Shown here in pieces: positions 37,472 through 61,796 of a stretch of 64,000 nucleotides of DNA. The notes below the pieces were generated by a model, which was not told where the DNA came from, did no database searches, and worked only from the letters and a program-made list of their open reading frames with translations. Location: positions 2,917-66,916 of IMG/VR virus record IMGVR_UViG_2716884754_000002; one strand, written 5' to 3'. The position numbers and the translations under genes were made by a program. This DNA comes from a virus. The first letter of the stretch is position 1. Every line of letters begins with the position of its first letter.

Positions 37472-37726
37472 ATGGTTATGAATGAAATCTATCATGTATT
37501 ACACAATAAAGAAAAAGATTTATGGTATATAGTACCCATTAAACAAGGATTTATGTCCACCATCAATGATCTAATGTATGAAAAAAAAGAAGTTATATTT
37601 ATTGGGGATGGTAGAAGTAAAAGAGAACAAGTTGAAGATTTAGTAGAATTGGTGTGTATGGATGATGGATATGGAAAATATTACATTCACATCATTTCAA
37701 AATTAATTTTTTCTTACGAAGACTGA
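37472..37726 (+). CDS. hypothetical protein
   Basis: 84-aa ORF whose 3' end overlaps the convergent minus-strand gene by 13 nt. Confidence 0.55.
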   Translation: MVMNEIYHVLHNKEKDLWYIVPIKQGFMSTINDLMYEKKEVIFIGDGRSKREQVEDLVELVCMDDGYGKYYIHIISKLIFSYED

Positions 37727-39000
37727 GTTTCTTTTTTAATAAAATCCGGATTAGGTGCTACAAATGCTCTCAGTTTAACTTTGTCCCAATCCTTTAATTC
37801 AGTAGGGGATTCTTCATCCCATAATTCATCATCATAATCCTCCGTAGGTTTATCACCCATTTTTAAAATAGACATTGTTCTATGCCACCCTTCTATTAAT
37901 TGATAAGTTCCATCAGGATTTTGTAGGATAATAACTGGTTCGTTCATTCCATCGTCTCTCCTCATACTCATTTGTGTATCCATTCGTTCTTCATCGTTTG
38001 GTACGTTATATGCATTTATATTACCGAAGTCTCTTTGTTCAAACGCTCTTACTGTACGTTTATCAAAATCCATTGGGTTTACATTTAAAACTTGCAACTT
38101 CCACGGACCTTTTAAATAGTTATACCACCACCCATTTCCATCACCTTTAATATAAGGTATTGGATCACCATTATAAGTGTTTAAAATATCTTTCATCGCT
38201 GGACGATGACCTGGTGCTCTCATTAATATGATGTTTCTATAATAATCTTGTAAAACATATTCTGGTGTGTCAGGAAATTCTCTCCTCATTTTTTCATATA
38301 TTCTTTTGTGGGGATTATTATCTTTATATATTGGAATACTAGTTACCTCTTCTTCTAACTCCACACCCATTTCATATTTGTTTTTGTTTGGGTTTGCATC
38401 ACTAACATTCCAATACTTTAAATCCTCTTCTATTTTAGATAATTGACTTTCAGTAATAATAATTTTTCTTTTAGTAATACTTTCATTTAAATTTCGTATT
38501 ACATTCACATCCATATCAAAAACATCGTCATAATCACCTTGTTCTATGAAATCATCTAAGTGAGTTGTTAATTCTGGATTTACCATATTACCATAATCAA
38601 TTTCCCAATCTAGTGCATCACCTGCATCATCCGAATCAGATGCCACCACACTATTTGTCGCTTCTCTCCAAGAGTTAACATTTTGGTACATTTTAACTTC
38701 ATACTCTTTCATTTGGGGTACAACTACTTCATCAATAGATGAAAAGTTACCATCAATAGTATTGTGTAAGTTGTTTTTATATAAAGAATAAAAATACATC
38801 AGTATATCCTTATCTAATGCTAAGTTACCTATTATATCATTATCCATTAAAAGGTACATATCAGTTCTATCACCACTCTGACTATTACGATTTTTTATTT
38901 TACCACCTAAAGTTCTATATATTTCTCTTAATACCGCAACCTCAAATTTATTGAACGGTTGGGTATCGGTAGTATTTCTTATAATATCTTTTAGTTCCAT
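37714..39000 (-). CDS. two-domain protein with C-terminal ParB/Srx-like domain (track start 39048)
   Basis: EPVIILQNPDGTYQLIEGWHRT motif; internal linker NLNESITKRKIIITESQLSKIEE; start MELKDIIR at 39000. Confidence 0.7.
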   Translation of the reverse strand: MELKDIIRNTTDTQPFNKFEVAVLREIYRTLGGKIKNRNSQSGDRTDMYLLMDNDIIGNLALDKDILMYFYSLYKNNLHNTIDGNFSSIDEVVVPQMKEYEVKMYQNVNSWREATNSVVASDSDDAGDALDWEIDYGNMVNPELTTHLDDFIEQGDYDDVFDMDVNVIRNLNESITKRKIIITESQLSKIEEDLKYWNVSDANPNKNKYEMGVELEEEVTSIPIYKDNNPHKRIYEKMRREFPDTPEYVLQDYYRNIILMRAPGHRPAMKDILNTYNGDPIPYIKGDGNGWWYNYLKGPWKLQVLNVNPMDFDKRTVRAFEQRDFGNINAYNVPNDEERMDTQMSMRRDDGMNEPVIILQNPDGTYQLIEGWHRTMSILKMGDKPTEDYDDELWDEESPTELKDWDKVKLRAFVAPNPDFIKKETQSS

Positions 39001-39031
39001 TTGTTTTTTTAAAAAAAAATGCTTATCTTTG
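39000..39031 (+). promoter_or_regulatory. Bacteroidota-type -33/-7 promoter
   Basis: TTTG-N20-TATCTTTG upstream of the nuclease gene. Confidence 0.65.
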
Positions 39032-39036
39032 TAATA

Positions 39037-39044
39037 ATAAATAT
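39037..39044 (-). promoter_or_regulatory. ATATTTAT motif on the minus strand
   Basis: Plus-strand ATAAATAT, 36 nt upstream of the minus-strand ATG at 39000. Confidence 0.5.
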
Positions 39045-39948
39045 GCATAAAATGGAGATTATTAAAGAATTATCCGTATTCAACAATATAAAATATTATG
39101 ATGAACCTCATACGTACTATATTGATGGAGAGAAAACAATATCCTGTACTGGTTTCATTCATAAGTTTGAAGAAGACTTTGAATCTAATGTAGATAAACC
39201 AGATAAGTGGGCGGAAAAACAAGGACATTTTTATAAGGCGAAAAGTATGGCAGATAAGTTTGCACATAAACAGAATTTTTATCCAATGGAAGATGACCCA
39301 TATGAGAGACCAGATTATTCAAATCCTAAACCACCGGAAGAATGTACCAGTGAAGAAGACATCAAAAAACTATGGAAATATAAAAACAATCATGCTACTT
39401 TTGAGGGTACAACTCTTCACGACTATATTGAGAATTATTTAAATAATAAAATAATGCCTTATCCCACTAAAAGTCCTGAAGGTTTAGACTTTAGTGAGAT
39501 AGAAGAAACATATAAAATTATGGAAGGTTATTTTCATAATTTCTATAATGATACAGTAGCTAAAGGTAAGTTAGTACCAATTAAATCAGAGTTAGTGGTT
39601 GGTGATAAAGACTATATGTTATGTGGGATGGTAGATCAGTTATTTTGGAATGAGAGGTATGGTACTTTAGAAATATGGGATTGGAAAACCAATACTCGCT
39701 TAAATATGAAAGATGATTATGGAAATAAAATGAAAGATTGTTTATGGATGTTAGATAAGTGTGAATTTAACACATATTCATTACAACTTAATATCTATAA
39801 AAAAATTATAGAAAAAAATACTAATTTAAAAGTTGGTAGATGTAACTTAGTTTGGTTTAATGAAAACAACCCAAATTATAAAGTCATTAAATGTGCGGAT
39901 TACAGTGAACACGTGGATAATATGTTATCTACTTTGATTCCTGCCTAA
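39043..39948 (+). CDS. PD-(D/E)XK exonuclease (RecB/YqaJ-like); track start 39019
   Basis: EGTTLHDYIE, SELVV, CGMVDQL, IWDWKT and YSLQLNIY motifs. Confidence 0.85.
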   Translation: MHKMEIIKELSVFNNIKYYDEPHTYYIDGEKTISCTGFIHKFEEDFESNVDKPDKWAEKQGHFYKAKSMADKFAHKQNFYPMEDDPYERPDYSNPKPPEECTSEEDIKKLWKYKNNHATFEGTTLHDYIENYLNNKIMPYPTKSPEGLDFSEIEETYKIMEGYFHNFYNDTVAKGKLVPIKSELVVGDKDYMLCGMVDQLFWNERYGTLEIWDWKTNTRLNMKDDYGNKMKDCLWMLDKCEFNTYSLQLNIYKKIIEKNTNLKVGRCNLVWFNENNPNYKVIKCADYSEHVDNMLSTLIPA

Positions 39949-39953
39949 TCGCG

Positions 39954-39984
39954 TTGTCTTTTTAATAAAAAATCCTTATATTTA
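39954..39984 (+). promoter_or_regulatory. degenerate Bacteroidota-type promoter
   Basis: TTG-N20-TATATTTA upstream of sbcD. Confidence 0.4.
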
Positions 39985-39988
39985 AGAT

Positions 39989-40807
39989 ATGATAAAAAAA
40001 TTATTTCACATTGCAGATTTACATTTTAGGACTTATAATAGACATAGTGAATGTAGAGAAGTCTGTAATAAATTCCTGAATGAAGTAAAATTCTATATGG
40101 AAGATAAAAACTTATCTTTTGAAGAATGTAGAATAGTAATTGCAGGAGATATAGTTCATCAGAAGATTACTATATCAAATGAATTAACAATGTTAGTTTC
40201 GTGGTTTCTTAATAAATGTAGTGAATTGTGTCCCGTAGTATTAATTGCAGGTAATCATGATTTATTGGAAAATAATAAAGATAGATTAGATTCACTTACA
40301 CCCATAATAGAGATAATGAATAATCCTTACGTAAGTTATTTAACTGAGAGTAAATGTTATTTAGACGAAAATATTGTTTGGTGTTGTTACTCCATCTTTG
40401 AAGAAAATGCAAGACCAGATATAGATGCCTGTCGTAAAGAGTATGGTGACGATAAAAAATATATAGGGTTGTTTCATGCACCAGTTAATGGGGCAATCAC
40501 TTCAGTAGGATTTGAATTTGAAGAATCAGTAGAATTACAACAATTTGAAGGGTGTGATGCGGTTATTATGGGAGATATACATCATAGGCAAAATTTTGTA
40601 CATAAAGGTATAAATATCACATATAGTGGTAGCTTCATCCAACAAGATTTTGGTGAAAGAGTTTCAGAACATGGATATCTTATTTGGGATGTAGAACACT
40701 TAGATTATACCGAACATGATATTGATACGGAATATGGTTACTATGTATTCAAAATAAATTCTTTAGAAGATTTAGATATCGGTAAAGAATATCTAACTAA
40801 TTCTTAA
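39989..40807 (+). CDS. sbcD: SbcD/Mre11-like metallophosphoesterase nuclease
   Basis: HIADLH, IAGDIVH, AGNHD, FHAP and MGDIHH motifs. Confidence 0.88.
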   Translation: MIKKLFHIADLHFRTYNRHSECREVCNKFLNEVKFYMEDKNLSFEECRIVIAGDIVHQKITISNELTMLVSWFLNKCSELCPVVLIAGNHDLLENNKDRLDSLTPIIEIMNNPYVSYLTESKCYLDENIVWCCYSIFEENARPDIDACRKEYGDDKKYIGLFHAPVNGAITSVGFEFEESVELQQFEGCDAVIMGDIHHRQNFVHKGINITYSGSFIQQDFGERVSEHGYLIWDVEHLDYTEHDIDTEYGYYVFKINSLEDLDIGKEYLTNS

Positions 40808-41469
40808 TGAGAGTCCCAAAAAAAATAAGAGACGAGATTAAAAAATTTTGTGAATTAAACAGTATTGATGATATTGATAAGTTCATCGTAAAAAACATTG
40901 AAACCGGATTTAATATTGAAAAGTATGGTAACGCACCTTTTATACAAGAAGTGGTGGTAGAAAAAGAAGTAGTTAAAGAAGTAGTTAAAGAAGTACCGGT
41001 AGAGGTGGAGGTAATTAAAGTTGAAGAAAAAATAGTCGAGAGGGAAATACCAATAGAAAAAGAAGTAATTAAAGAGATTACTGTAGAAAAAGAAGTGTAT
41101 ATTACTGATAATAAAGAGGTAGAAAAATTAGCATCTAAAATTATAGATTTAGAAGAAAAAATATTAAAAGAGAAAAAAAATAATACTTCTTTGCAAAATA
41201 AATTAAACAAAATAGAAAAAACTTATACAATAAAAGAGACAGAAAATTTAAACAAAGAGGAATCTATTAGTAAATTAAATATTGAGATTAAGAAAAAGGA
41301 TAAAAAAATAAAAGAATTAAAAAATGAAGTGGTTGATTTAGAAAAAGAAATTACGGATTTAAAAAATAAAGGTTTGGGTAATAAAGGTAGACCTATTAGA
41401 GACATTTATGATGAAGAACCTTTTAGTAAAGGTGGACATTGGGGATCTAATCTTAAAGATAAAAAATAA
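40807..41469 (+). CDS. V/E/K-repeat coiled-coil protein
   Basis: EVVVEKEVVKEVVKEVPVEVEVIKVEEKIVEREIPIEKEVIKEITVEKEV followed by heptads. Confidence 0.7.
   Translation: MRVPKKIRDEIKKFCELNSIDDIDKFIVKNIETGFNIEKYGNAPFIQEVVVEKEVVKEVVKEVPVEVEVIKVEEKIVEREIPIEKEVIKEITVEKEVYITDNKEVEKLASKIIDLEEKILKEKKNNTSLQNKLNKIEKTYTIKETENLNKEESISKLNIEIKKKDKKIKELKNEVVDLEKEITDLKNKGLGNKGRPIRDIYDEEPFSKGGHWGSNLKDKK
40966..40995 (+). repeat. in-frame 12-bp tandem repeat (about 2.5 copies)
   Basis: GAAGTAGTTAAA x2 plus GAAGTA, encoding EVVK-EVVK-EV. Confidence 0.8.
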
Positions 41470-41474
41470 TAAAT

Positions 41475-43856
41475 ATGGAAAATCAATTTGAAGTGGTTAG
41501 AACAAAAAAAATAGTAGAAGTTCCGAGTAACGCACAAATAAGGGTAGATTGGCAAGATTACCCTGAAAATAGAACATTAGAAACGATCAATAGAGTTAAA
41601 ACTTATTTTTCGGATAAGTATGGTTTACCTAAATCATCCATCAAAATTAATTTTATACCGATTTTAAAAAATAGTGTGGGTAAAGTAGTAGACATCACCG
41701 ATGGATTGATAGATAATATAATGGACACCGCATATCAAAGAAAATTATTTACTCAGTGGTTAGAAATAAATGGAGTTGATATAGATTTTGATCGGTTATG
41801 TAGATTAGACGAAAAAGTTAATGATGTATTAGTAAATTTAGGAGAAGAAGATATAAGATATAGGAGATGGAGTATAAATAGGTTATGGATTGATAATTTT
41901 TTATCTTTTGGTGGTGATAACATAGTGGATTATAATAATCTTAAAGGGTTAACTATAGTGAATTCATTACCAGCCAATCAAGGTGGTAAAACAATTTTTA
42001 GTATTGATTCTTTACTATTCTTATTTTTTGGTAAGACAACTAAAACTGATACTGCCGCTGAAATATTTAATACATTTACTGATAAAAACGAAGTGGTAGT
42101 GGGAGGCGAAATCAATATTGATGGTGAAGAATATATTATTGAACGTAAATTATTTAGGAAAAAAACTAAAACAGGTAATTATAAAACATCTTCTGAATTA
42201 AATTTCTATAGAGTTTTATCAGATGGTAGTCACGAAAATTTAGAGGGTGAACAACGAAGAGAAACTGATAAATTAATTAGTGAAACTATAGGTACGTTTG
42301 ATGATTTTATGTTAACTATTGTTGCAACTGCAAAAAATTTAGAAGATTTATTAGAAACCAAACCAACACAAAGAGGAAGGTTGTTAACTAAATTTATTGG
42401 TTTAGAAATTATTGAGAAAAAAGAAGAAATTAATAAGGGTTTAATGTCTGATTTCAAAAGTAAAATGAAATCAAATATTCATAATACTAAAGAATTAGAA
42501 TTTGAAATTGATGATAATTTAGACAAAATAAAAGAAAATAAAAATACAATAAAAGAAAATAATAATAAATTATTAAAAATAGATGAAGAGATCGCTGAAG
42601 CCAATAATAAAAAAGAAGTGTTATTATCAGAAAAATATGTTATTGATGATGAAGTAAGTAGTGTAAACCCTAAAACTTTAAAGGACGAAATAGGTTCATT
42701 AACAGAAGAGGGTGTAACTAAGAAAAAATCTTTAGATAAGATAGTAAAAGATATTAGTAAGATAGGTAAGGTGGAGTATGATGAAGATACTCATGAAGAA
42801 TTGAGACTGGAAGAAAAAGATTTATTGTTGAGAGAAAGTAAAGAGGAGAGTAATAAAGAAAGAAAAGAGTTATTAATTAAGAATTTAGAAGAGGGTGAAA
42901 CATGTCCTACATGTAAAAGAGCGTTAGATGATGTAGATCATAGTAAAGAGATAAAAGCGGAAAAGGAAAATTTAAAAACCATCAAAGGTTTAATAAAAGA
43001 AATACAAAAAGATTTAGGGATAACAATTAAGTCTTTAGATAAACAAAACAACCTAAAAAATATTTCTGATGAAAAAGATAAATTAGAACTAAGTAGAGAT
43101 AGATTAGAAGTAGAGATAGAAGGTTTAAGGGTAGATTTAAAAGAAAAAATGAATCTACAAAAGAACTATGAACGTAATATTGAGTATATTGAAAAGAATA
43201 GAAACTTAGAAAGTAAAATATTGGGGTACAATCAACTCTTAGAGAAGTTAAATAAAAAAAGAGATAGTGTTAGAAATGAAATACAAGACTTAAAAAATGA
43301 TAATAAAGTTAAAAAAGAAATAAACACCAAAAACAAACTATTAATTCAACAAATATTGAGAGAAGAGGAAGTATTAAAAATATTTGAAATATATAATAGG
43401 ATGATTGGTAAAAACGGTATATCTAAGTTGGTTTTATCTTCAGTAATACCTATTATAAATTATGAGTTAGATAGGTTATTAGATGAAGTATGTGATTTTC
43501 AAATACAATTAGAGATTAATGATAAAAATGAAGTAGATTTTAATATAGTTAAAAAAGACGTAACCAAAAAGTTAAAATCAGGATCAGGATTAGAAACAAC
43601 GTTAGCATCTTTAGCACTTAGATGTGTATTAGGTAGAATTTCTACGCTACCAAAACCAAATATTATCGTCTTTGATGAGGTGTTAGGTAAAGTTGCGAAT
43701 ATAAATTTAGATTATGTTAAAATATTTTTTGATAAGATAAAAAAGATGTATGAGGTGATTTTACTCATAACACATAACCCTATCACGCAAGATTGGGGTG
43801 ACAAAATTATCACTATTGAAAAAAATAATGACGTTTCGTCATTGCAAATCAAATAA
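41475..43856 (+). CDS. sbcC: SbcC/Rad50-like SMC ATPase
   Basis: Walker A NQGGKT, zinc hook CPTC, signature GSGLE, Walker B IVFDEVLG and LITHN. Confidence 0.92.
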   Translation: MENQFEVVRTKKIVEVPSNAQIRVDWQDYPENRTLETINRVKTYFSDKYGLPKSSIKINFIPILKNSVGKVVDITDGLIDNIMDTAYQRKLFTQWLEINGVDIDFDRLCRLDEKVNDVLVNLGEEDIRYRRWSINRLWIDNFLSFGGDNIVDYNNLKGLTIVNSLPANQGGKTIFSIDSLLFLFFGKTTKTDTAAEIFNTFTDKNEVVVGGEINIDGEEYIIERKLFRKKTKTGNYKTSSELNFYRVLSDGSHENLEGEQRRETDKLISETIGTFDDFMLTIVATAKNLEDLLETKPTQRGRLLTKFIGLEIIEKKEEINKGLMSDFKSKMKSNIHNTKELEFEIDDNLDKIKENKNTIKENNNKLLKIDEEIAEANNKKEVLLSEKYVIDDEVSSVNPKTLKDEIGSLTEEGVTKKKSLDKIVKDISKIGKVEYDEDTHEELRLEEKDLLLRESKEESNKERKELLIKNLEEGETCPTCKRALDDVDHSKEIKAEKENLKTIKGLIKEIQKDLGITIKSLDKQNNLKNISDEKDKLELSRDRLEVEIEGLRVDLKEKMNLQKNYERNIEYIEKNRNLESKILGYNQLLEKLNKKRDSVRNEIQDLKNDNKVKKEINTKNKLLIQQILREEEVLKIFEIYNRMIGKNGISKLVLSSVIPIINYELDRLLDEVCDFQIQLEINDKNEVDFNIVKKDVTKKLKSGSGLETTLASLALRCVLGRISTLPKPNIIVFDEVLGKVANINLDYVKIFFDKIKKMYEVILLITHNPITQDWGDKIITIEKNNDVSSLQIK

Positions 43857-44444: not shown

Positions 44445-45278
44445 ATGAATAAGAAATTTATAAATACTAAAGAAGATTCTATGTCCATTTACTTAAAGGA
44501 TGTAAGAAAAAGTGAACAAATAACACCACAACAAGAAGTAGAAATCGCTAAAAGAATATCAGAAGGGGATGAGAGTGCAATTGAAGAATTGGTTATGGCT
44601 AATTTAAGATTCGTTATAGCAATAGCAAAAGATTATCAAAATCAAGGGTTACCATTGGCAGATTTAATATCTGAAGGTAACTATGGGTTGATTACTGCAG
44701 CTAAGAGATTTGACTATACTAAAGGTTTTAAATTCATTTCTTATGCGGTTTGGTGGATAAAACAATCTATTTTACAATCATTAAATGATAATTCTAGGAT
44801 GGTTAGAATACCGGCTAATATGATTAATAAACTATCTAAAATAAAAAAAGAAATTGAGGCATTTGAGAAGGAATTTCAGAGACCACCTTCTCCCAATGAA
44901 GTAGAGTATATTTCTATACCCACATGTAGTTCTTTGAATAACACAATAAATGAAGATGGTGATGAATTAGGTTCACTAATTAGAGATAACACCTTTGCTA
45001 GTCCTGATAAAGTGATTGACCCAAACGACACTTTAAACGGACAGTTAATGAATGTAATGTCTATATTAAGTTATAGAGAAAGAGAAATAATTAATTGTTA
45101 TTTTGGTATATTTGGTAGTCCTATGACATTAGAAGCTATAGGCGAAGAATTAGAATTAACTAAAGAGAGAATTAGACAGATTAAAGAATCTGCAATTAGA
45201 AAAATAAGGCATAATGTGGGAGATTTATTAGATTATGTTTTAGAAGAAGAACAAGAAAGTGGTATAAAAATCACTTAA
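44445..45278 (+). CDS. rpoD: RpoD/SigA-like sigma-70 factor of Bacteroidota type (no region 1.1)
   Basis: ANLRFVIAIAKDYQNQGL, DLISEGNYGL, GFKFISYAVWWIKQSILQ and LTKERIRQIKESAIRK motifs. Confidence 0.92.
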   Translation: MNKKFINTKEDSMSIYLKDVRKSEQITPQQEVEIAKRISEGDESAIEELVMANLRFVIAIAKDYQNQGLPLADLISEGNYGLITAAKRFDYTKGFKFISYAVWWIKQSILQSLNDNSRMVRIPANMINKLSKIKKEIEAFEKEFQRPPSPNEVEYISIPTCSSLNNTINEDGDELGSLIRDNTFASPDKVIDPNDTLNGQLMNVMSILSYREREIINCYFGIFGSPMTLEAIGEELELTKERIRQIKESAIRKIRHNVGDLLDYVLEEEQESGIKIT

Positions 45279-46617: not shown

Positions 46618-47225
46618 TGGTTATAGATGAAAATACATATAAATTAAAGGAGGACAATTTTTATAATAAATCTTTTGATAAAAATCAAATTGTTATTGGA
46701 AATTCTTTTTCTCATAGTTTAAATCATTTCACTGGTTGGTTAAATAGATTAGATGGGGAATATAAAGAAACTGCACATTATACAATTACTAGAAAAGGAG
46801 AAATATATCAACATTTCGATACTAATAATTACTCTAATTTTGTAAATGAAAAAAGGGTTGATAAAAAAATTATTTCTATAGTATTAGAGAATTTAGGGTG
46901 GTTAAAAAAAGATTTGAAGGCAGACAAGTACATTGACTGGGTAGGTAATATTTATAAAAGAAGGGTTAAAGTTTTAGAAAAGAGATGGAGAGGACAACAA
47001 TATTGGGATCCATATACACCAAAACAATTTAATACTACAGTTAAGTTAGTTAAGTTTTTGTGTAATAAATACGATATTGATAATAAATGTGTAGGGCATA
47101 ATACATTTATTAAAGATATTGAGGATTTTAAAGGAGTTGTTTATCGAAGTAATTATTATAAAGATAATACAGATGTTAATCCTTCTTGGAATTTTTATAA
47201 ATTTAAAGAAAAAATAGAAAAATAA
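46617..47225 (+). CDS. N-acetylmuramoyl-L-alanine amidase-like protein (Amidase_2 fold, possibly degenerate)
   Basis: TAHYTITRKGEIYQ, ISIVLENLG, YTPKQF...LVKFLC and CVGHN motifs. Confidence 0.7.
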   Translation: MVIDENTYKLKEDNFYNKSFDKNQIVIGNSFSHSLNHFTGWLNRLDGEYKETAHYTITRKGEIYQHFDTNNYSNFVNEKRVDKKIISIVLENLGWLKKDLKADKYIDWVGNIYKRRVKVLEKRWRGQQYWDPYTPKQFNTTVKLVKFLCNKYDIDNKCVGHNTFIKDIEDFKGVVYRSNYYKDNTDVNPSWNFYKFKEKIEK

Positions 47226-48622
47226 TGAAAAAACAACTAAAAGAGGAACTTAAAAGATTTAATCAGATATTAAATTATGAATTATCGGGTAATAATTTAA
47301 TAAGGGAATCTGTTAGTGTGTTTAGCGACGCAATAATTAATAAATTAACACCCTCTTTACCCCTTAATTCTGAAAGTGATGATGTAGAATCAATTACCCT
47401 TTTACAAAAAACTTTAGTAGATTTAGGTAAATTAAATAAAAATTATGGAATTGATGGGGACGGGGTTGACGGTGATTTTGGTGGTGACACTAAAAAGGCA
47501 TTATATAAAACAATAAAAAGTGAACAATTGAATGATATTAACATAGATGAGTTTGAAACGGTATTAGATGATAATTCGGACAAAATAGTTAATACGTTAG
47601 ATAATCATGCAGATTTCTTTAAAAGATATGTGAAACAAGGTGGTGTTAGTAAAGATAAATTTAAGAAATGTAAATCTATAACGTCATACAAAGATTTAGA
47701 TTTTGTCCCTAAAAAAAATATGTGCCATACGAGAACAACTATTGCAGAAACACTTAACGAGGTGTTTCCTAAAGAATCACCAATTAATAAGGCAGCCATT
47801 TTATCCGTTATGATAAAAGAACAGGGTAGGGGTAATAAGATTTGTGCACCAAACAATAATTATGCAGGTATACAAACCGATGCTGGAAGATGGGGAGATT
47901 TAGACGATAAAATAGATGCACAATTTTGTGCTAAAGACGCAGAAAGAGTCAGATCTTTTGCTTCATTTACTAGTTTAAGTAATGGTTTATCATTCATAAA
48001 AAAATCATTTGATAGAAAAAATTGGTTTGTTAAACTTTTAGTAGATAGTGATGATGAAAATGTAGAAACGGAAGAAGTAGATATAGAAAAAATTTCTAAA
48101 AATCATGCAATTATTTGGCAAACTAAATGGAATTTGAGTTTAAATAAAGAAGAATTTAATAGGTTTAAAAAATATGGATACAATCCTTATATGAAAAATA
48201 AATCCTTTGCAGATAAAAAAGGGATATATAAAAAATCTGTTAATGACTTAACTACAGAAGAAAAAAAACAACACGACAAAAAAGATAAATTTTACAGAAG
48301 TCCTGAAAAAATACAAAAAAGTTTAGACTCAGTAAGTAACCACTTTATGACTGCATATAATATATTTAAAGAATTGGGGGGTGAAGAACCTATAATTACA
48401 CAACCCGGAATTGATGATGAAATAGATATGGTAGTTGACTTACCACAAGTAACTATAACAACATCTAAAAATAGAGGTGGTGGTGGAACAATGTGGTTTG
48501 ACCCAGATGACTTCAAATCAAAGAAAGATACTATAATACCAAATATTTATGGTAGAGAGATAGATATAAAAAAGGGAGATATAGTTCCCGATCATTTAAG
48601 AAATGATGATGACGATTTTTAA
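47225..48622 (+). CDS. peptidoglycan-binding domain + GH73-like glycosidase
   Basis: LLQKTL...VDGDFGGDTKKAL (PG-binding); AAILSVMIKEQG...NNNYAGIQ...RSFASF (lysozyme-superfamily/GH73-like). Confidence 0.6.
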   Translation: MKKQLKEELKRFNQILNYELSGNNLIRESVSVFSDAIINKLTPSLPLNSESDDVESITLLQKTLVDLGKLNKNYGIDGDGVDGDFGGDTKKALYKTIKSEQLNDINIDEFETVLDDNSDKIVNTLDNHADFFKRYVKQGGVSKDKFKKCKSITSYKDLDFVPKKNMCHTRTTIAETLNEVFPKESPINKAAILSVMIKEQGRGNKICAPNNNYAGIQTDAGRWGDLDDKIDAQFCAKDAERVRSFASFTSLSNGLSFIKKSFDRKNWFVKLLVDSDDENVETEEVDIEKISKNHAIIWQTKWNLSLNKEEFNRFKKYGYNPYMKNKSFADKKGIYKKSVNDLTTEEKKQHDKKDKFYRSPEKIQKSLDSVSNHFMTAYNIFKELGGEEPIITQPGIDDEIDMVVDLPQVTITTSKNRGGGGTMWFDPDDFKSKKDTIIPNIYGREIDIKKGDIVPDHLRNDDDDF

Positions 48623-48635: not shown

Positions 48636-49172
48636 ATGAACCAACATGATGAAACAAGAAAAATATTAGAATTAATTAGAGAAAGTGGTAGAAAAGTATC
48701 TCCCACTAAAAAATTAATTAATGAGCAAGACATAAGCGCCCAAAAACAAGATGAAAATGCGTTAGACCCTACAGAAATTAGAGAACAAGAAAGGTTATTT
48801 AGGGATACTGTAACACAAAGAGTTAAATTTAATCAATTAAAATTATATCCTAAGGCTCAGAATGTAGAATGGAGTGGTAAGTTTACGGATAATGAAATTG
48901 AATGGTTTTATTCGTTAGATGATTCACAAGGGGTTTATATTACAACTGACTTATTACAACTTAGGGAGGATACAATGAAATTACTTCAAAAGTTAATAGG
49001 TTATTATAAAACATGGTCAGAAGATTGGGCAAAAAGAATTGCAGAAGAATATGAGAATGATTTGGTAGACGAAGAAAATGCTGAAGAAGGACCAGAAAGT
49101 TTAGAATCACCAGGATTTGGGGAAGAAGGAGGAGGTGAAACTATGCCACAAACCCCAACTACCGATGCTTAA
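48636..49172 (+). CDS. hypothetical protein with (I/L)-x-E leader
   Basis: ETRKILELIRES...KKLINEQ N-terminus and acidic tail. Confidence 0.7.
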   Translation: MNQHDETRKILELIRESGRKVSPTKKLINEQDISAQKQDENALDPTEIREQERLFRDTVTQRVKFNQLKLYPKAQNVEWSGKFTDNEIEWFYSLDDSQGVYITTDLLQLREDTMKLLQKLIGYYKTWSEDWAKRIAEEYENDLVDEENAEEGPESLESPGFGEEGGGETMPQTPTTDA

Positions 49173-49954: not shown

Positions 49955-50215
49955 GTGGAAGATAGAGAATTAAAACATATTATTAGGGAAGCATTAACTA
50001 AAACGGATGAAAACAAAATTGGTGTTATGATTCGTAAAGAGATAAGAGATGCTTTTGGTAAAGATTTAGAAAAAAAAGTTACTGCTATTGTAGAAAAACA
50101 AATAAAAGGTACTAAATTTGAAAAAGAAGTGGTAAAAATAAGTAAAGATGTATTAGAACAACTTTATAGAGAATTATGGATGAGGAGAATGTTTTGGAAA
50201 AATGCAATTAAATAA
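49955..50215 (+). CDS. hypothetical protein with (I/L)-x-E leader
   Basis: ELKHIIREA leader; 86 aa. Confidence 0.65.
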   Translation: MEDRELKHIIREALTKTDENKIGVMIRKEIRDAFGKDLEKKVTAIVEKQIKGTKFEKEVVKISKDVLEQLYRELWMRRMFWKNAIK

Positions 50216-51411: not shown

Positions 51412-52260
51412 ATGGAAAAGAAATTTTTAACTAAAAATACAAAAGTTACCATTAATGAAGAGGCGGCACCTAATGGATTAAAAACTTATGAAAAAATCCA
51501 TAAAGAAGATGCAACTATTAATAATGATGCATTAAAGGAGATTGGGAAGAAGTTAGAAGATTATTATGGTGATGAATTAAAAGAATTAGATCCGGTATTA
51601 AAGGTAGATAGAGAACAAGAATCAACTGGTGATGTAGATGTATATGATATTGAAGCATTAGGTACTGGAATGCAGGCATTAAAATATGATGATGAAGGTA
51701 GTGAAGTATTTAAAAAGTTTATGAAAAGAATGGACGATTTAAATGATACCTCAGAATACGATAAAGAATTTGGTACTAAAGATGGTTTCGGTGCAACAGA
51801 CAAAAAAGATGACACTTATGAGAAATTAGAGAAAGCATCTGATGAGTATAAAAAGAATAAATATGATGAACCTAACCCTGAAATTGCAACACGTAGAGTA
51901 AGAGTTCAAACAGAGTCAAAAAATGAAAAAATGAAAAGATTAAATTTTAAAAACGAATTTACTTCAATAGAAGAAGTTAAAGAATTAATACCTGAAAATT
52001 ATAAGGTGGATGATCACACATTTTTAATGACAGATGGAAACCAAACATATAAATTTAGATGGGACGAATCTTTAAAAGAGGCAACAGTATTAAATTATAA
52101 AAACACTCAACAAATTAGTGAAAATGTTGATAAAATGAAAAAACTTTATGATTTTAAATATGGTGATGTAAACACTAAAACCAATGATTATACTGAAGAA
52201 ACAAAAGTTTTTAAAAATTTAATGGAATCTATTAAAGATAAAGATTTATTATCTGAATAA
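51412..52260 (+). CDS. acidic hypothetical protein (head scaffold/internal protein candidate)
   Basis: TINEE, QTESK, ISENV and LMESI segments; D/E/K-rich. Confidence 0.65.
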   Translation: MEKKFLTKNTKVTINEEAAPNGLKTYEKIHKEDATINNDALKEIGKKLEDYYGDELKELDPVLKVDREQESTGDVDVYDIEALGTGMQALKYDDEGSEVFKKFMKRMDDLNDTSEYDKEFGTKDGFGATDKKDDTYEKLEKASDEYKKNKYDEPNPEIATRRVRVQTESKNEKMKRLNFKNEFTSIEEVKELIPENYKVDDHTFLMTDGNQTYKFRWDESLKEATVLNYKNTQQISENVDKMKKLYDFKYGDVNTKTNDYTEETKVFKNLMESIKDKDLLSE

Positions 52261-52333: not shown

Positions 52334-53089
52334 ATGGGTTTAAATTTTAAAAATATATTATTAGAATCAATAATTGACGAATTAGATAATCTAAGTAGAA
52401 TGGATAAAGCGGTTCTTAAGTTTATCCACAACTCTATGTCACAAGAAAAATTTCCTCATCTAGTTGGTAATAAAAGCTATGATTTTGATGCTAGTGACGC
52501 ACTAAGAATTAATGATTTAATTAATAGTTTTGGTTTAAAAGATTATGACTATGCTTTCAAAATGTGGAATTTTTATAAAAGGTTTGGGAATGTCTTATTT
52601 GATGATGAGGTATTTGATGACTTTTCATACAAACAAGAAGATTATGATGATGCAACTAAACTTATAGTTGCAAAATATTATATAGATAATCTAGTAGGTA
52701 GGGAAATTTATCCGGGATGGACAATAGAAATGATGGAAGATCCAATTGGTATGGTAGAAGAAGATGTTATGACGTTTACAGTGGGTAATGATAAGTCAGA
52801 AGTAATATATCTCTATTTACTAGATTTAAATGGTAAAAGATTACAGGGAGATATAATTACTCATAATGTAGGATTAGGCGCATATTTTGTGGAAGCAGGT
52901 ATATCTAAACATAATGATGTTATTGATAGTATTGAGATACCAAACCCTTTAAAAGAAAGATTAATAGATTTAAGTGATGAAAGTTTGGAAAAATATTTTG
53001 ATTTCATTATTGAACAAATACAAGATGAGATTGAAGAATGGGATGAAGACATCCTACACTACTACAAAGATTGGGAACCAGAAAGGTAA
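52334..53089 (+). CDS. acidic hypothetical protein with (I/L)-x-E leader
   Basis: MGLNFKNILLES start; 251 aa. Confidence 0.7.
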   Translation: MGLNFKNILLESIIDELDNLSRMDKAVLKFIHNSMSQEKFPHLVGNKSYDFDASDALRINDLINSFGLKDYDYAFKMWNFYKRFGNVLFDDEVFDDFSYKQEDYDDATKLIVAKYYIDNLVGREIYPGWTIEMMEDPIGMVEEDVMTFTVGNDKSEVIYLYLLDLNGKRLQGDIITHNVGLGAYFVEAGISKHNDVIDSIEIPNPLKERLIDLSDESLEKYFDFIIEQIQDEIEEWDEDILHYYKDWEPER

Positions 53090-53132: not shown

Positions 53133-53969
53133 ATGTTATTAAAAAAAGGAAGTAAAGGGGATGATGTTAAAGAATTACAAAAATTATTAAAAATTACTGT
53201 TGATGGTGATTTTGGTCCAGCAACTGAATTAGCCGTTATGAAATTTCAAGGACAACAAGGGTTAAAAACCGATGGTATAGTCGGTCCTAAGACATGGGCA
53301 AAAATACAGAGTAGAAATGGGGGTGAACAAAATAGTGATGGGTATGTTTGGATATTAGATAATGGACATGGAGGGATAATAGACGGTGTATATCAAACAT
53401 CTGGTAAACGATCACCTAAATGGGAAGATGGTACACAGTTATTTGAAGGAGAGTTCAATAGAGCGGTTGTAAAGAGAATAATTAAGATGTGTGAAAAGGA
53501 TGGTATTGAATGTATTAATTTAGTTGATACCGAAAAAGATTTATCATTAAGATGGAGAACTGATAAAGCAAATGATATATACAGAGAAAGACAACAAAGT
53601 GATGGTAAGAAATGTATTTATGTTTCAGTACACGCTAATGGATTTAATAAAGAATCTGCACACGGTTGGTCGGTGTATACAACCGTAGGGGAAACTAAAT
53701 CAGATAAAATTGCTCAGATATTACACGAAAAGGCAAAGGCAGAATTTCCTACACATAAAATGAGGATGGATAATAGAGATGGTGATGCCGATAAAGAATC
53801 TAACTTTTGGGTTTTACGTAAAGTTGTTATGCCTTCCATATTATCAGAAAACTTTTTTATGACTAATAGAGAAGAAAGTAAACTTTTATTAAGTGAGGAA
53901 GGAAGAGATAGGATTGCTAAAATACATTACCAAATGATAAAAGAAGTAGAAAAGAATAAAATTATATAA
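53133..53969 (+). CDS. endolysin: peptidoglycan-binding domain + N-acetylmuramoyl-L-alanine amidase (Amidase_3); track start 52974
   Basis: MLLKKGSKGDDVKELQ...DGIVGPKTW (PG-binding), ILDNGHGG, EGEFN, YVSVHANG and ILSENFFMTN. Confidence 0.88.
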   Translation: MLLKKGSKGDDVKELQKLLKITVDGDFGPATELAVMKFQGQQGLKTDGIVGPKTWAKIQSRNGGEQNSDGYVWILDNGHGGIIDGVYQTSGKRSPKWEDGTQLFEGEFNRAVVKRIIKMCEKDGIECINLVDTEKDLSLRWRTDKANDIYRERQQSDGKKCIYVSVHANGFNKESAHGWSVYTTVGETKSDKIAQILHEKAKAEFPTHKMRMDNRDGDADKESNFWVLRKVVMPSILSENFFMTNREESKLLLSEEGRDRIAKIHYQMIKEVEKNKII

Positions 53970-55995: not shown

Positions 55996-56012
55996 TTTTA
56001 ATTATTTTTTTA

Positions 56013-56020: not shown

Positions 56021-56027
56021 TATAAAA

Positions 56028-56035: not shown

Positions 56036-56041
56036 CTTAAA

Positions 56042-56467
56042 ATGCGGTTAATTGTAAATGAAAGACAATATAAAGAGTTATTATCAAACCAAAAACAGAA
56101 CCTAAGTACGGGAGATGAATGGGTAAACTATATTAGTGATTTCACAATAACCAATCTAGAAGATAAAAATTTACTAGAAAGTGTACTAACAAATAATAAT
56201 TTAAAATATAAATTAGGTAAGTTTAATTTTTATAAAAAATTACCTATAGATAATATTATTTTAAATGTTTATAGTGAAGAAAACTCACCATTTAATTCCG
56301 AATTTGATGAAAGAGAAATATTTATAAATGAAAATAAACAGATAAAAAATGTCAATATTAATATTACTATAGATAAACTCCTAACATTAGAAGAACAAAT
56401 AGATAAAAATAATTTAAAGTTAACCTTACATAAAATAAAAGAGTGGTATGAAAATAATAATAAGTGA
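56042..56467 (+). CDS. hypothetical protein with leader motif
   Basis: MRLIVNERQYKELL start. Confidence 0.65.
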   Translation: MRLIVNERQYKELLSNQKQNLSTGDEWVNYISDFTITNLEDKNLLESVLTNNNLKYKLGKFNFYKKLPIDNIILNVYSEENSPFNSEFDEREIFINENKQIKNVNINITIDKLLTLEEQIDKNNLKLTLHKIKEWYENNNK

Positions 56468-57449
56468 AAAGCAATTAAAAATACTTAGAGAAGATAGTAT
56501 ATCTTCAGAAACTGACGTTGCATTAGATGATTTGAAAACTGCGGATCATTGGGTGGATGAGTTAGATGGTAAATATATTAAACGATATAAAAAAAATAAT
56601 GTGGATCACGTAAAACGTATACAGACAATGTTAACATTATTGGGTTACGATGTAGGACATTACGGTGATGGTGAACCAATGATAGACGGTATTTATGGAC
56701 CGGACACCGCAGAAGCAGTAAGAGATTACCAAAAAGATGTATTCATTGAACCGATTGAGTGGGACTCAATTATTGGCCCTAAAACGTATACGGAATTATA
56801 TGATGACATAGAAGAATTAGGAGATGATCACGCTATGTCAGTAGAAGAGGTATTATTATTGGGGTTAGATGATGAAAACATTATGGGGGATGAAGATGAT
56901 CCACATTATGATGACGAGGAAGATGATGAAGAAGAGGAAGAAGAAAATGATGATTTTGAATATAGTGATGGGATAGAAAAGTGGTTCGCACCTATCTCAG
57001 AAGAAGGATCGGGATGGGAAATAAGGTATCACGATCATTTTGGATCTGGTAAATATGGTGCGAGTAGAGGTAATAGAATTCACAAAGGATTAGACATTAT
57101 TTCAAATAAAGACGAAAAGGTATTTTCCCCTATGGATGGAAAAATTACGAGAACATTTCACCCATATAGTGATAAATGTAGATTTTTAAAAGGGGTAGAA
57201 ATTGTAGGTGAAGGTGAATATTCGGACTATAAAATGAAATTAATGTATGTGGATTTAGAAGATAATGTAGATACTGGAGATAGTGTTAAAAAAGGAGACG
57301 TAATTGCCATCCAGCAAGATTTATTGGAGTGTTATCCACCCAAACATGGTAAAAGTATGACTAATCATATACATTTTGAAGTGTACGAAAATGGAAGGAG
57401 TATTGACCCTGAACAAATAATAGATATGGAAAGACCTATAATGGTATAA
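56448..57449 (+). CDS. peptidoglycan-binding domain + acidic linker + M23 (LECT2-like) metallopeptidase domain
   Basis: MKIIISEKQLKILRE leader, IDGIYGPDTAEAVRDYQ (PG-binding), HKGLD and NHIHFE zinc motifs. Confidence 0.85.
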   Translation: MKIIISEKQLKILREDSISSETDVALDDLKTADHWVDELDGKYIKRYKKNNVDHVKRIQTMLTLLGYDVGHYGDGEPMIDGIYGPDTAEAVRDYQKDVFIEPIEWDSIIGPKTYTELYDDIEELGDDHAMSVEEVLLLGLDDENIMGDEDDPHYDDEEDDEEEEEENDDFEYSDGIEKWFAPISEEGSGWEIRYHDHFGSGKYGASRGNRIHKGLDIISNKDEKVFSPMDGKITRTFHPYSDKCRFLKGVEIVGEGEYSDYKMKLMYVDLEDNVDTGDSVKKGDVIAIQQDLLECYPPKHGKSMTNHIHFEVYENGRSIDPEQIIDMERPIMV

Positions 57450-57459
57450 ATTTAATTAA

Positions 57460-57837: not shown

Positions 57838-57850
57838 GTATAATTGTAAT

Positions 57851-58042
57851 ATGGATGAAATAGAAAGAGAACGATTTAAGATTGAAATCGATAAAGAAAA
57901 GACTGAATTAAAAAAAGAACAATTTATTAAAGAAATTAGATCTGGGTTAGGTGACCATATTAAAAAAAATGGTAATAAAATTAATAGAATTGAAAAAACC
58001 AAATGGCAAAAATTTTGGTTAAAAATTAGAAAAATATTTTAA
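57851..58042 (+). CDS. small hypothetical protein
   Basis: 63 aa with an amphipathic basic C-terminus. Confidence 0.55.
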   Translation: MDEIERERFKIEIDKEKTELKKEQFIKEIRSGLGDHIKKNGNKINRIEKTKWQKFWLKIRKIF

Positions 58043-58043
58043 A

Positions 58044-58265
58044 ATGAATTTAGAAAAAGTTTTAGATATTGCAAATGAATGTGTGAGTAATGAAACCATA
58101 CCAACAGAAGGGTTAACCCTTATGTATTTTTTAGATGGAAAAACCCACCGACATTTAGATGAAGAATTGTTTTATAAAACTAATAATAGTTTAAATTCGT
58201 TCCAACACAACAAAGAAATAGAAGTGAATATTGCAGGTATTACTTTTATTTTTAAAGAAAAATAA
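58044..58265 (+). CDS. small hypothetical protein
   Basis: 73-aa ORF. Confidence 0.6.
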   Translation: MNLEKVLDIANECVSNETIPTEGLTLMYFLDGKTHRHLDEELFYKTNNSLNSFQHNKEIEVNIAGITFIFKEK

Positions 58266-58266
58266 T

Positions 58267-58298
58267 TTTGACATTATAAGAAAAATTGTTTAACTTTA
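58267..58298 (+). promoter_or_regulatory. degenerate Bacteroidota-type promoter
   Basis: TTTG-N20-TAACTTTA upstream of 58315. Confidence 0.45.
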
Positions 58299-58314
58299 CA
58301 CAAAAAGTTTACTT

Positions 58315-59376: not shown

Positions 59377-59379
59377 GGG

Positions 59380-59387
59380 ATATTTAT
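59380..59387 (+). promoter_or_regulatory. ATATTTAT motif
   Basis: Exact 8-mer ending 6 nt before ATG 59394. Confidence 0.55.
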
Positions 59388-59393
59388 TAATAT

Positions 59394-61796
59394 ATGGATA
59401 AAAAATCATTAGACATAATAGTAGAAGAATTCTTTGATACCGGTAAATTGGTATTAAATGAAAATTACTGGGATGATACAGTAAGAATATTTACTAATTT
59501 AAGAAATAATCCTCAAACCGTTGATCAGTTATTAGATAGATATGACAGTATCCGTAATGGTGTCTATTCAGATAGAATTGGAAGGTTAAACGATATGATG
59601 GTTAATAATGAAATATCCGTATTTGATTTTATTGAAGGTTTACAAAGTGATGAAGTTGATGAAGAAGAATATTCGGAAGATGGGGTTATTTTCCCAACAA
59701 CTGACACTACTGAGGTAGAAGATGAAAAAGAGGTTGAAGTTTCTGACGAAGAATCTAAAGAAGAACCATTATATATTAGTGATAAAGTAGTAAAATTAAC
59801 CAATCCCATACAAAGAAAAAATCAAATTAAAAAACAAAATAATACTCCTTTATTACCATTATCTAGAAATTATGATGGTGATAAAGATAGTGAGTTATAT
59901 AAGTCTAATTTAAGATTGTTACAATATATTCTATGGAAAGGAGCCTGGACAAGAGAAGACATAGGTCCAACAGAAACTAGTGAATTGAAAAATGAAATAG
60001 ATAATTCCGAATTTGGGGAAATGACTGATATGTTACTTAGACTTTTCCAAACTATTCAAATGCAAAAAGAATATAAAGATAATAATGAACCGGATTATAT
60101 ACTATATTTTAATGATGGGCAACCTTCTTTAGAATGGAAAGAAGGTAGTATACCTATGTCTGTATATAAAAATTTACCACAAATATATAAAAATGAAGGT
60201 ATAGTAGATAAGGGGACATGGGATAAATTGATGAAAGTGATGGAGGAAAAAGAAATTATAAAATTAGAATTCATACCTAATTCTGAAGGTAATATAGATA
60301 GAATTGTTGATAAATCTCAGATAAAAACTATTGACGTAAATAATGATACCTTTGATGAAAGTAAGAGAGACATGTTTAAGTCATTATCACTTAAATTTTT
60401 TAATAATTTACATAATAATGAAATATATAAAACGACATTCCAAAAACAATGGGGGGATTTACAACAAAAGTTTTTGAAGGGTATACAAAGAGTAAGAAAA
60501 ATAGAAGAATTAGAGAAGAAAAAGGAAAAATTTTTAAATGGTTTAACTCTAGATTATAGAGAAAGAAATGAAAAAGGTATTAAGCGATATATAAAAGATA
60601 ATTTTGATACCCCAATTACAGATTTAAAGTCCACATCAAATAATATAGATGTAGAACCCATAGAGTTTTGGGAGAATTATAAAGATAGATGGGACGAAAT
60701 TAATAGAAGAACAGGTGGTGGAAGTACTGAAGGAGAAAGAGAAAAGAAGGATTTACAAAAAGAATATGTTAAATATAGAAATCGAAGATCTACTATTGAG
60801 GGTATATATGAAAAAATAATTGATAAATTAAAAGAGGCATTGAGAGGAAGAATATTATCTATAAATGAAATTAACACCATATTACATAATGTAAATGACT
60901 CATTATATGAAGTATTTGATACTGATAGACGACTTACCACACAAATAAACAATGCTAGAAACCTAATTAAGGATCTCTTTGATAAATTAAGTAAAAAGGA
61001 TGATATAGATGTATATGACGTAGTAGATTTCTTAAAAAACATAAATACTAGAAAACTCAGTTATGATGTATACGAAAAAAGTTTTTGTGGGTGTGAAGGT
61101 AATTATTTTAGAGGGTGTAATGGAAAAGAAGGTGATAAATCTAAGTTATTCAATACTGCCGTAAAAGAAATTAAAAAATATTTAGACGGAGACTTCAGAG
61201 ATTTGACAATTACAGGTGCTTCCGAATCAATTTATAACTTAATTATAGATAAGGAAACTACTAATGCGGATAAGTATGATATAATATCTAATAGTGCGGT
61301 TACTTTAACTAATAATGTAGTAATACCTGAAGGTAAAAAGATTGAGATTAAAAAATACGATGAGAGTTCATCATACACCTTATCCGAATTTATTGGTTTA
61401 TATAAAAAACAAAAGGATATAGTTAAGTATAAATACGAAAATGCTGAATATTATAAAAGATATAATAAAATAATAGAAGACGTAGTAAGACGTTTAAACT
61501 TGAATGATAATGGATTAGCAAATAGCTTCATAAATAATACAGAAGATGACGATAAATTATTTGGTGTTTTTGTTAGTAATTATATGTTTTATAAGTACGA
61601 TCAAATAGAAGTATTTTGGGATACAGATTCAGATCAAAAAAGATTTAGTGATGAATTTAGAATAACTCTTAAATTTAGAATTAAAGATAATGAACAACCC
61701 TCCCAATGGGTAACTGGTAATTGTAATCTTGATGAACCTAATACTATAGAAGAATCAATAACTAACTTTTTCGACACAGGTAATTTTGAATTTTAA
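59394..61796 (+). CDS. large hypothetical protein (800 aa) with FFDTG motif at both termini
   Basis: IIVEEFFDTGKLVLNE at the N-terminus and IEESITNFFDTGNFEF at the C-terminus. Confidence 0.7.
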   Translation: MDKKSLDIIVEEFFDTGKLVLNENYWDDTVRIFTNLRNNPQTVDQLLDRYDSIRNGVYSDRIGRLNDMMVNNEISVFDFIEGLQSDEVDEEEYSEDGVIFPTTDTTEVEDEKEVEVSDEESKEEPLYISDKVVKLTNPIQRKNQIKKQNNTPLLPLSRNYDGDKDSELYKSNLRLLQYILWKGAWTREDIGPTETSELKNEIDNSEFGEMTDMLLRLFQTIQMQKEYKDNNEPDYILYFNDGQPSLEWKEGSIPMSVYKNLPQIYKNEGIVDKGTWDKLMKVMEEKEIIKLEFIPNSEGNIDRIVDKSQIKTIDVNNDTFDESKRDMFKSLSLKFFNNLHNNEIYKTTFQKQWGDLQQKFLKGIQRVRKIEELEKKKEKFLNGLTLDYRERNEKGIKRYIKDNFDTPITDLKSTSNNIDVEPIEFWENYKDRWDEINRRTGGGSTEGEREKKDLQKEYVKYRNRRSTIEGIYEKIIDKLKEALRGRILSINEINTILHNVNDSLYEVFDTDRRLTTQINNARNLIKDLFDKLSKKDDIDVYDVVDFLKNINTRKLSYDVYEKSFCGCEGNYFRGCNGKEGDKSKLFNTAVKEIKKYLDGDFRDLTITGASESIYNLIIDKETTNADKYDIISNSAVTLTNNVVIPEGKKIEIKKYDESSSYTLSEFIGLYKKQKDIVKYKYENAEYYKRYNKIIEDVVRRLNLNDNGLANSFINNTEDDDKLFGVFVSNYMFYKYDQIEVFWDTDSDQKRFSDEFRITLKFRIKDNEQPSQWVTGNCNLDEPNTIEESITNFFDTGNFEF

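Follow-up and report, generated by a model that had tools for sequence, protein, structure and literature searches.

The DNA analysed here, a 64,000-nucleotide stretch of the virus record IMGVR_UViG_2716884754_000002 (hereafter the window; G000:C4:2917-66916), comes from an uncultured, distant T4-like jumbo phage and encodes several proteins that carry a short leader peptide ending in a hydrophobic residue, any residue and Glu. About 30 otherwise unrelated proteins of this phage bear such leaders, and from their sequences we judge it on balance probable that the leaders are tags for capsid targeting and for processing by a prohead protease. The initial annotation of the window had pooled its examples as a single leader family: they do share leaders of the (I/L)-x-E kind, but belong to two different classes, a short propeptide (class A) and a longer leader of 17 residues (class B), plus two chance tripeptides. 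We are more confident than this overall judgement implies that the short class comprises protease substrates, and less confident that the long leader is a docking signal.

The source bin of the window comprises 1.34 Mb in 27 contigs. Its phage contigs are of low GC content (C4, C9, C14, C17, C18 and C24 at ~29%, C12 at 31%) and account for 19.5% of the bases, or ~210-260 kb of phage DNA in total; the remaining contigs, from the host, lie at ~32-38% GC, the large ones at 36-38%. We searched the six-frame translation of the whole bin for class B leaders with a loose regular expression and then with an 18-column hidden Markov model (HMM), a genome-wide scan that the initial annotation had proposed. 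The leader reads MKIKLTExQ(Y/L)K(R/K)(I/L)(I/L)xE, or, with the alternatives seen at each position, M-K-(I/V)-K-(L/I)-T-E-x-Q-(Y/L/F)-(K/N)-(R/K)-(I/L/V)-(I/L/V)-x-E. The HMM returned 16 matches of at least 14 bits on phage contigs. Outside them a single match of 19 bits came from a host contig, in a fragment of 25 amino acids (aa), and scores below it did not exceed 10 bits; 20 shuffles of the phage frames yielded no match of at least 14 bits, with a maximum of 11.5. Fourteen of the 16 copies begin at the initiator Met and two sit further inside the protein. Three copies lie in the window: at the start of open reading frames (ORFs) 56042 (MRLIVNERQYKELL) and 56448, and inside the minus-strand gene 37714-39000 (KIIITESQLSKIEE on that strand), and by HMM and shuffles these form one 17-residue family more firmly than had been claimed for them. 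Two further proteins have a 29-aa extended form in common, MKIKKNGxVIRLTESDLKKIVKRVLIEQD.

Past the leader, the class B proteins are mutually unrelated, a single paralogous pair excepted. Their known domains are M23 with PG_binding_1, and thioredoxin; the others have none, and Pfam and PHROGs searches with more than 30 tagged proteins mostly returned no family. The codons at conserved leader residues differ between copies (ATA/ATT/ATC, TTA/CTT, ACA/ACG/ACC, GAA/GAG, TCN/AGT), I, V and L interchange, and the DNA upstream is not conserved. Selection therefore acts on the peptide, and the conserved unit is a peptide rather than a DNA element. The leader is predicted to begin as a short strand or coil and to go on as an amphipathic helix, and holds two cleavage-type sites (Glu 7 and Glu 16).

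Class A follows the pattern M-x(4-15)-[ILV][ILV]xE↓[S/A], where the arrow marks the candidate site, and its Glu peaks at residue 11, the position it occupies in seven of the proteins. Among 273 phage ORFs, [ILV][ILV]xE[SA] occurs 18 times in residues 1-30, against ~3.0 expected (standard deviation 1.6-1.7, maximum 8 in 300) from shuffles of whole proteins and of N-termini only alike; the motif is thus commoner near N-termini than in shuffled sequences, a comparison that had been suggested at the outset. Its rate at the N-termini is 6.6 times the rate over the remainder of these proteins; in 1175 host ORFs the N-termini are not enriched (ratio 0.94). On the contig that holds the head genes (C9), class A proteins include the acidic scaffold (MATKRKSIIEE↓A), a 253-aa ORF between the portal and protease genes, the ORF that follows the capsid gene and, within the leader-gene cluster, one of 415 aa. 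An identical tag, MGRLAKLKRELxLES, is common to two unrelated proteins, and in the major capsid protein LLNE↓A occupies residues 57-61 and precedes by 13 residues the block aligned with T4 gp23 residue 95.

Orthologs keep class A sites while adjacent residues vary: NIL(L/F/I/V)E↓S is retained in ~36 of 40 homologs of ORF 52334 (62-100% identity), even in some with upstream-extended gene calls. Together with ORF 52334, the leaders first noticed on ORFs 49955 and 48636 are borne out, by the regular-expression enrichment, as members of this second and weaker class. The one proposed for ORF 47225 also matches the regular expression, but is less clear, its Glu coming only at residue 28. Two others, KVTINEE of ORF 51412 and KLVLNEN of ORF 59394, fit neither class.

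Leader exchange can be followed in the minus-strand gene 37714-39000, which consists of an N-domain, a linker with NLNE↓S, the internal class B leader and a C-terminal domain with a GWHR motif and a putative ParB/Srx fold. Its true start is probably the Met at 39000 (MELKDIIRN...), since ATATTTAT lies 39 nt upstream of this ATG inside a longer ORF call and homologs start with MELKD or MKLKD. The GWHR domain has 187 homologs, and the tallies that follow are for the 120 of them that were listed. Essentially each starts with a leader. The long leader (MKIIITExQYKKLQE↓DLEYW...) stands at or near the N-terminus in ~17 and internally in 24 two-domain forms; short MKxLI(R/K)(K/R)ILKE↓ leaders head at least 46; and the remainder is mostly made up of variants, among them MKFSDILKE↓G, MKNIIKKILRE↓S and MKEQIRTILKE↓Y. 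All of these leaders meet the domain at one residue, so that ILKE lines up with the second of the two hhxE sites (h, hydrophobic) in the long leader. Since one domain bears, from phage to phage, either kind of leader at this one junction, the leaders behave as swappable modules. We regard the match of ILKE to the second hhxE as the best argument that the two classes would do the same job and that the Glu would matter. ORF 52334 is uninformative on swapping, its homologs being one clade with the same N-terminus.

In an AlphaFold2 (AF2) model of the GWHR protein, built on the alignment of these homologs, the leader is a detached, low-confidence helix (residues 7-19) joined by a disordered linker (20-51) to a confidently predicted domain. 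The top Foldseek matches of the GWHR domain in the PDB are all sulfiredoxin, ParB-N, Noc or PadC, and are weak (E 0.014-0.1, template modelling score by target 0.5-0.63). GWHR is invariant in 30 homologs. The ParB-like call made for this protein at first reading therefore keeps the fold matches and a weak PHROG match (E = 0.0025) in its favour, but its E-values are weak and no Pfam family matches. A natural recombinant was also seen (L104:8675-8950), in which the leader and MRFDGKSTGLF of the family of a 413-aa protein are joined to the body of a 73-aa family at NEYF. The case points to leaders as joints for recombination, like the variable internal protein loci of T-even phages.

The T4-type head genes (Peptidase_S77, gp23-type major capsid protein, portal and TerL) are all on C9. 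The gp21-like protease, which the idea of a processed tag had called for, is present there: the product of C9:50285-50974 matches PF03420 (Peptidase_S77) over C9:50429-50884 with 88.5 bits and is phrog_207, head maturation protease, with E = 8e-43. Directly upstream of the TerL-portal-protease-scaffold-capsid genes are five class B genes and one class A gene, and within gene strings of C9 and C14 members of both classes are interleaved. All tagged genes had been said to lie directly behind ATATTTAT or in operons that it heads; often they do follow it, but not all. Of 29 tagged genes, 15 have the motif in the 80 nt upstream, against 47 of 244 others (Fisher p = 2.8e-4), and it also precedes TerL, portal, protease and scaffold, a pattern consistent with a late-type motif and late co-expression of tagged and head genes.

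By its major capsid protein, the phage is closest among cultured phages to Flavobacterium phage vB_FspM_immuto (41% identity), whose host is Flavobacterium sp. LMO8; Microcystis phage Mel-JY01 comes next, and two uncultured huge phages after it. With a Flavobacterium phage as nearest relative, the host is probably a member of the Bacteroidota. In the bin, ~260 kb of phage DNA (C4, C9, C12, C14, C17, C18, C24) co-occurs with a 70%-complete host genome, from either a cell caught mid-infection or co-binning. Contig C12 has few, very long genes, among them two that encode leader-type proteins.

Several class B proteins deserve individual mention. Proteins with an M23 domain behind a class B leader recur in IMG/VR in several architectures; in ORF 56448 the order is leader, PG_binding_1 (PF01471), acidic linker and Peptidase_M23 (PF01551), the Pfam match confirming the M23 domain read from the sequence at first. 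At G000:C9:43227-43736 (L003:7227-7736), a Pro-rich linker (RPVRPDRPDVPHKPDWIKPP) separates the leader from a thioredoxin domain; a packaged thioredoxin, if real, would be of interest given the Cys-rich virion proteins noted in the window by the initial annotation. The 413-aa class B protein (G000:C9:39996-41237; L003:3996-5237) is extremely rich in Lys and Cys, with an isoelectric point (pI) of 9.9, and is the cargo most like a T4 internal protein; its C-terminal 170 residues have leaderless homologs in phages immuto, Melnitz and HTVC008M. A conserved tagged protein of 273 aa, encoded upstream of TerL, was considered as a possible small terminase: its AF2 model (pLDDT 87.5) shows a helical domain and a C-terminal winged helix and matched no terminase.

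The long leader is found widely in uncultured phages. A degenerate DNA pattern for class B residues 1-9 hit at least 120 IMG/VR contigs, and most of its 140 matches lie at ORF starts with the leader continuing, 81 by a strict regular expression against an expectation that we roughly estimate at ~0.5%. The class B HMM recognized 168 copies among the loci listed, 166 of them within 25 residues of the preceding in-frame stop, and the leader heads at least 41 clusters as defined past the leader, mostly without a Pfam family. Of five large leader-bearing relatives, four encode Peptidase_S77, each of them 254-353 kb in size and with between 1 and 13 copies of the leader; the record of the fifth is 68% complete. 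Head genes lie near 36 of 120 listed leader loci, which is due to synteny of one or two orthologous tagged genes and is not independent evidence.

Phage immuto has shared leaders of its own (MW353176). Leaders of the MKKSQLRQIIKE↓A type occur on at least three proteins, with MKKSQIVKAVQEVLEE as a looser fourth; MKKQILSEQFKRMQxLAGIITE↓S, on two proteins, resembles a long leader followed by a clean short-type site; and a third type, FLxENKLTxNxxxLKE, is found upstream of TerL. The class B model also matched the C-terminal end of a thioredoxin-domain ORF of immuto, which we took as chance. Immuto is a usable cultured experimental system. Pieces of the leaders, six to seven residues long, had no match in the literature searched.

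How the tags might work is best described along the lines of T4. Most likely, the class A tag, of ~11 residues, would mark proteins of the prohead core, which a gp21-type protease would trim after the Glu. The class B leader would most likely dock varied cargo (many ORFans, but also an M23 peptidase, a thioredoxin and proteins with a winged helix or a putative ParB/Srx fold) on the scaffolding core during prohead assembly and then be cut off. Docking, cleavage, retention in the virion and ejection are all steps that we infer. The likeness to T4 drawn in the initial annotation is partly supported. It stands on each point open to a test by sequence: the protease, the tags on unrelated proteins, the motif on scaffold and capsid protein and the late-type upstream motif all agree with it. 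The cargo, however, is mostly acidic, unlike the internal proteins of T4.

That acidity is one of several observations that weigh against capsid targeting and processing. After removal of the tag, the median pI is 4.9 and ~6 of 31 proteins are basic, whereas T4 internal proteins are basic. The residue following the class B Glu residues is variable, unlike the S/A of the short sites; Q9 of the leader is invariant, for which a protease motif gives no account; and the leader of ORF 56042 is without the second Glu. In the model of the 273-aa protein, the leader helix continues into a long helix of the folded part. Cleavage motifs inside tagged proteins numbered 1 against 2.4 expected, an underpowered comparison that shows no significant depletion, and the ratio of observed to expected [IL]xE was 1.07 in tagged and 1.22 in other phage proteins, again with little power. 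The class B leader was not found in 50,697 cultured or deposited phage records searched by tblastn with a 22-aa leader, the 413-aa protein and the GWHR domain. Finally, capsid targeting offers no reason why one genome should keep two leader classes.

Other accounts of the shared N-termini have to be set beside this one. Chance in a Glu- and AT-rich proteome, or paralogy or a conserved DNA element such as the region of translation start, seems to us very improbable. The initial annotation had itself cautioned that Glu-rich proteins contain such tripeptides by chance, and this is right for its examples in ORFs 51412 and 59394, which are no better than chance, but for the set as a whole chance is excluded in both classes by the shuffles, by the host ORFs as a control and by the peak in Glu position. 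One tagged pair is indeed paralogous and recombinants between leader genes occur; other pairs are dissimilar past the tag, synonymous sites vary and upstream DNA differs. Such explanations are largely refuted for the whole set and still apply to individual weak cases. A common N-terminal helix on unrelated proteins implies, however, only a common partner, and the leaders could be tags for a modifying enzyme, as in ribosomally synthesized and post-translationally modified peptides (RiPPs), for a chaperone, or for tail or baseplate assembly. M23-type cell-wall hydrolases are often tail-associated in other phages, and a protease site does not account for the invariant Q9 or for how strongly residues 1-12 are conserved. 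We nevertheless hold such a partner to be unlikely: tagged genes cluster with the head module, the scaffold itself bears a short tag, and short leaders, which amount to hardly more than a cleavage motif of T4 type, can take the place of the long one. As to a modifying enzyme, all nine matches to Radical_SAM (PF04055) are on host contigs (C1, C3, C5, C11) and none on phage contigs, of which the bin may hold an incomplete set.

Slightly less improbable, though we still doubt it, is that the tags do reach the prohead and are cut there while most tagged proteins are core or scaffold accessories that are degraded and expelled, with no large set of injected effectors. Since most tagged proteins are acidic, many of them may be degraded core components of this kind; many are very acidic, like T4 gp67, gp68 and gp22, and the same short tag is borne by the scaffold and by the product of the ORF that separates portal from protease. 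T4 core proteins are cut up and leave the head (PMC9026906). Against accessories as the whole explanation stand the folded cargo of enzyme or DNA-binding type in which nothing resembles a scaffold (M23 with PG_binding, thioredoxin, the putative ParB/Srx fold, winged helix), the few strongly basic proteins, such as the 413-aa one, and the tagged proteins' internal cleavage motifs, which are not enriched.

If capsid targeting is the right reading, its extent may be large. We tentatively suggest, giving it somewhat less than an even chance, that in marine T4-like jumbo phages of Bacteroidota several interchangeable N-terminal tags bring proteins into the capsid, tens of them in each genome and hundreds of families over the whole lineage; such a modular system would include the 17-aa MKIKLTExQYKRIIxE, short tags of the MKxLIRKILKE type and further ones, MGRLAKLKRELxLES among them. 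A large group of uncultured marine phages would then apply the T4 principle at a far larger scale and with swappable tags. Candidate virion-internal or injected proteins (anti-defence factors, cell-wall enzymes, DNA-binding proteins) could be listed from metagenomes by sequence only, and the leaders would provide new natural packaging tags for phage engineering, including that of non-E. coli phages.

The coordinates of the window's leader-bearing genes, and of the genes compared with them, are collected in Table 1.

Table 1 Leader candidates and related genes of the window (nucleotide positions of the window; arrows mark candidate sites).
Feature	Coordinates	Strand	Length (aa)	Leader or site	Leader coordinates	HMM score or Glu position	ATATTTAT upstream	Remarks
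ORF 56042	56042..56467	+	141	class B, MRLIVNERQYKELLS	56042-56092	24.3 bits	-29	no Pfam or PHROG family
ORF 56448	56448..57449	+	333	class B, MKIIISEKQLKILRE	56448-56492	20.9 bits		
Minus-strand gene	37714..39000	-	428	internal class B, RKIIITESQLSKIEE	38425-38469	21.3 bits		two domains
ORF 52334	52334..53089	+	251	class A, MGLNFKNILLE↓S	52334-52366	Glu residue 11	-13	
ORF 49955	49955..50215	+	86	class A, MEDRELKHIIRE↓A	49955-49990	Glu residue 12	-27	basic; pI 9.8 past tag
ORF 48636	48636..49172	+	178	class A candidate, MNQHDETRKILELIRE↓S	48636-48683	Glu residue 16		acidic; no Pfam family
ORF 47225	47225..48622	+	465	weaker candidate, ..NNLIRE↓S		Glu residue 28		regular-expression match
ORF 59394	59394..61796	+	800	MDKKSLDIIVE↓E (DIIVE, residues 7-11)		Glu residue 11	-14	weak candidate; Glu followed by E, not S/A
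ORF 51412	51412..52260	+	282	lone I-x-E tripeptide in KVTINEE				no leader HMM, regular-expression or Pfam match
Endolysin	53133..53969	+		leaderless				negative example; PG_binding_1 and Amidase_3 (Pfam)

Some of these genes need comment. ORF 47225 had been assigned to GH73: Atlas leads to PG_binding_1 and Glucosaminidase clusters, with scores below 0.9, and on this lead the protein may carry peptidoglycan-binding and glucosaminidase-like domains, but it has no Pfam match and no PDB sequence match. In ORF 59394, DIIVE is a better site than KLVLNEN, yet a weak candidate, matched by neither the class B HMM nor the class A regular expression. The endolysin lacks a leader, as had been noted. Four genes of cell-wall hydrolase type lie within 11 kb (46617-47225, Amidase_2; 47225-48622; 53133-53969; 56448-57449), and leader-like N-termini are seen in 47225-48622 and 56448-57449 only.

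Neighbouring genes were read from their translations. After the inverted gene, 39019-43856 would encode a PD-(D/E)XK-like protein, a phosphoesterase resembling SbcD and an ATPase of 793 aa resembling SbcC/gp46, and a probable sigma-70-type factor follows at 44445-45278. Proteins that look like an OmpR-type response regulator (62480-63178) and a TROVE (Ro-like) protein (63371-64000) are encoded next to tRNA-Asp (63191-63265), and tRNA-Leu and tRNA-Arg are at 37246-37410.

The capsid-targeting sequence (CTS) of T4 is the textbook case of a virus that loads chosen proteins into its head, known for a handful of proteins of E. coli phages; it is borne by IPI, IPII, IPIII and Alt and removed by gp21, and exchange of the Glu for Asp blocks the cut. 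For comparison, we took T4 N-termini from NC_000866 and ran the class A regular expression on 90 kb of T4. The N-termini are MLKEQLIAE↓A in gp22, MAKINELLRE↓S in gp24, MEGLIE↓A in gp67, MKTYQEFIAE↓A in IPII and IPIII and MELITELFDE in Alt, and gp23 has ..FLTE↓A. The expression gave seven N-terminal matches, of which five are known gp21 substrates (gp22, gp24, gp68, IPII, IPIII). A sixth is gp2 (L141:26062-26886), whose MAIFQIINE↓S fits the short propeptide pattern; gp2 protects the DNA ends and is packaged in the head.

In T4, gp21 cleaves at L/I-X-E, and the internal proteins are diverse except for a conserved 10-residue CTS; for packaging of IPIII its 10 N-terminal residues are enough, among which residues 4 and 7 determine targeting and residues 8 and 10 processing (PMC9026906, PMC3012670). 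The phage described here resembles T4 in encoding a gp21-family protease, in having unrelated proteins with a common N-terminal tag that ends in hydrophobic-x-Glu, and in bearing the motif also on its scaffold, other head-module proteins and capsid protein; the Alt leader, like that of class B, has two sites. It differs in that its tags have no similarity to MKTYQEFIAE beyond the initial MK and the terminal hydrophobic-x-Glu, and judging by this comparison they are a functional analogue or a distant variant of the T4 CTS and not the same tag. The long leader also has 17 residues against 10, ~30 proteins are tagged in this one genome against four, with at least 41 clusters in relatives, and there are at least two leader classes in one genome, here known from sequence alone. 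The T4 CTS and the gp21 propeptides are known; the leader sequences, the presence of two or more exchangeable classes in one genome, the scale and the lineage are new.

Giant phages offer a further parallel. In 201phi2-1, a gp21-related protease cuts ~19 head proteins after Glu, some of which are ejected (PMC9026906). Like the phage of the window, the phiKZ-like giants (201phi2-1, phiKZ, SPN3US) have a giant capsid and propeptides with a Glu cleavage motif, there on head, inner-body and ejection proteins; unlike its leaders, their propeptides are long, have no short common consensus tag and are cut at S/A/G-X-E, with a small P3 residue in place of I/L/V, and the lineage differs, the capsid protein here being gp23-like. 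Outside phages, the cargo-loading peptides of encapsulins and the encapsulation peptides of bacterial microcompartments are short, transferable amphipathic helices on flexible linkers that bring unrelated enzymes into a shell interior. The encapsulin shell has the HK97 fold, encapsulin tags are C-terminal, and neither kind of peptide is removed by a protease. Their likeness to the leaders is one of analogy only, and no homology is claimed.

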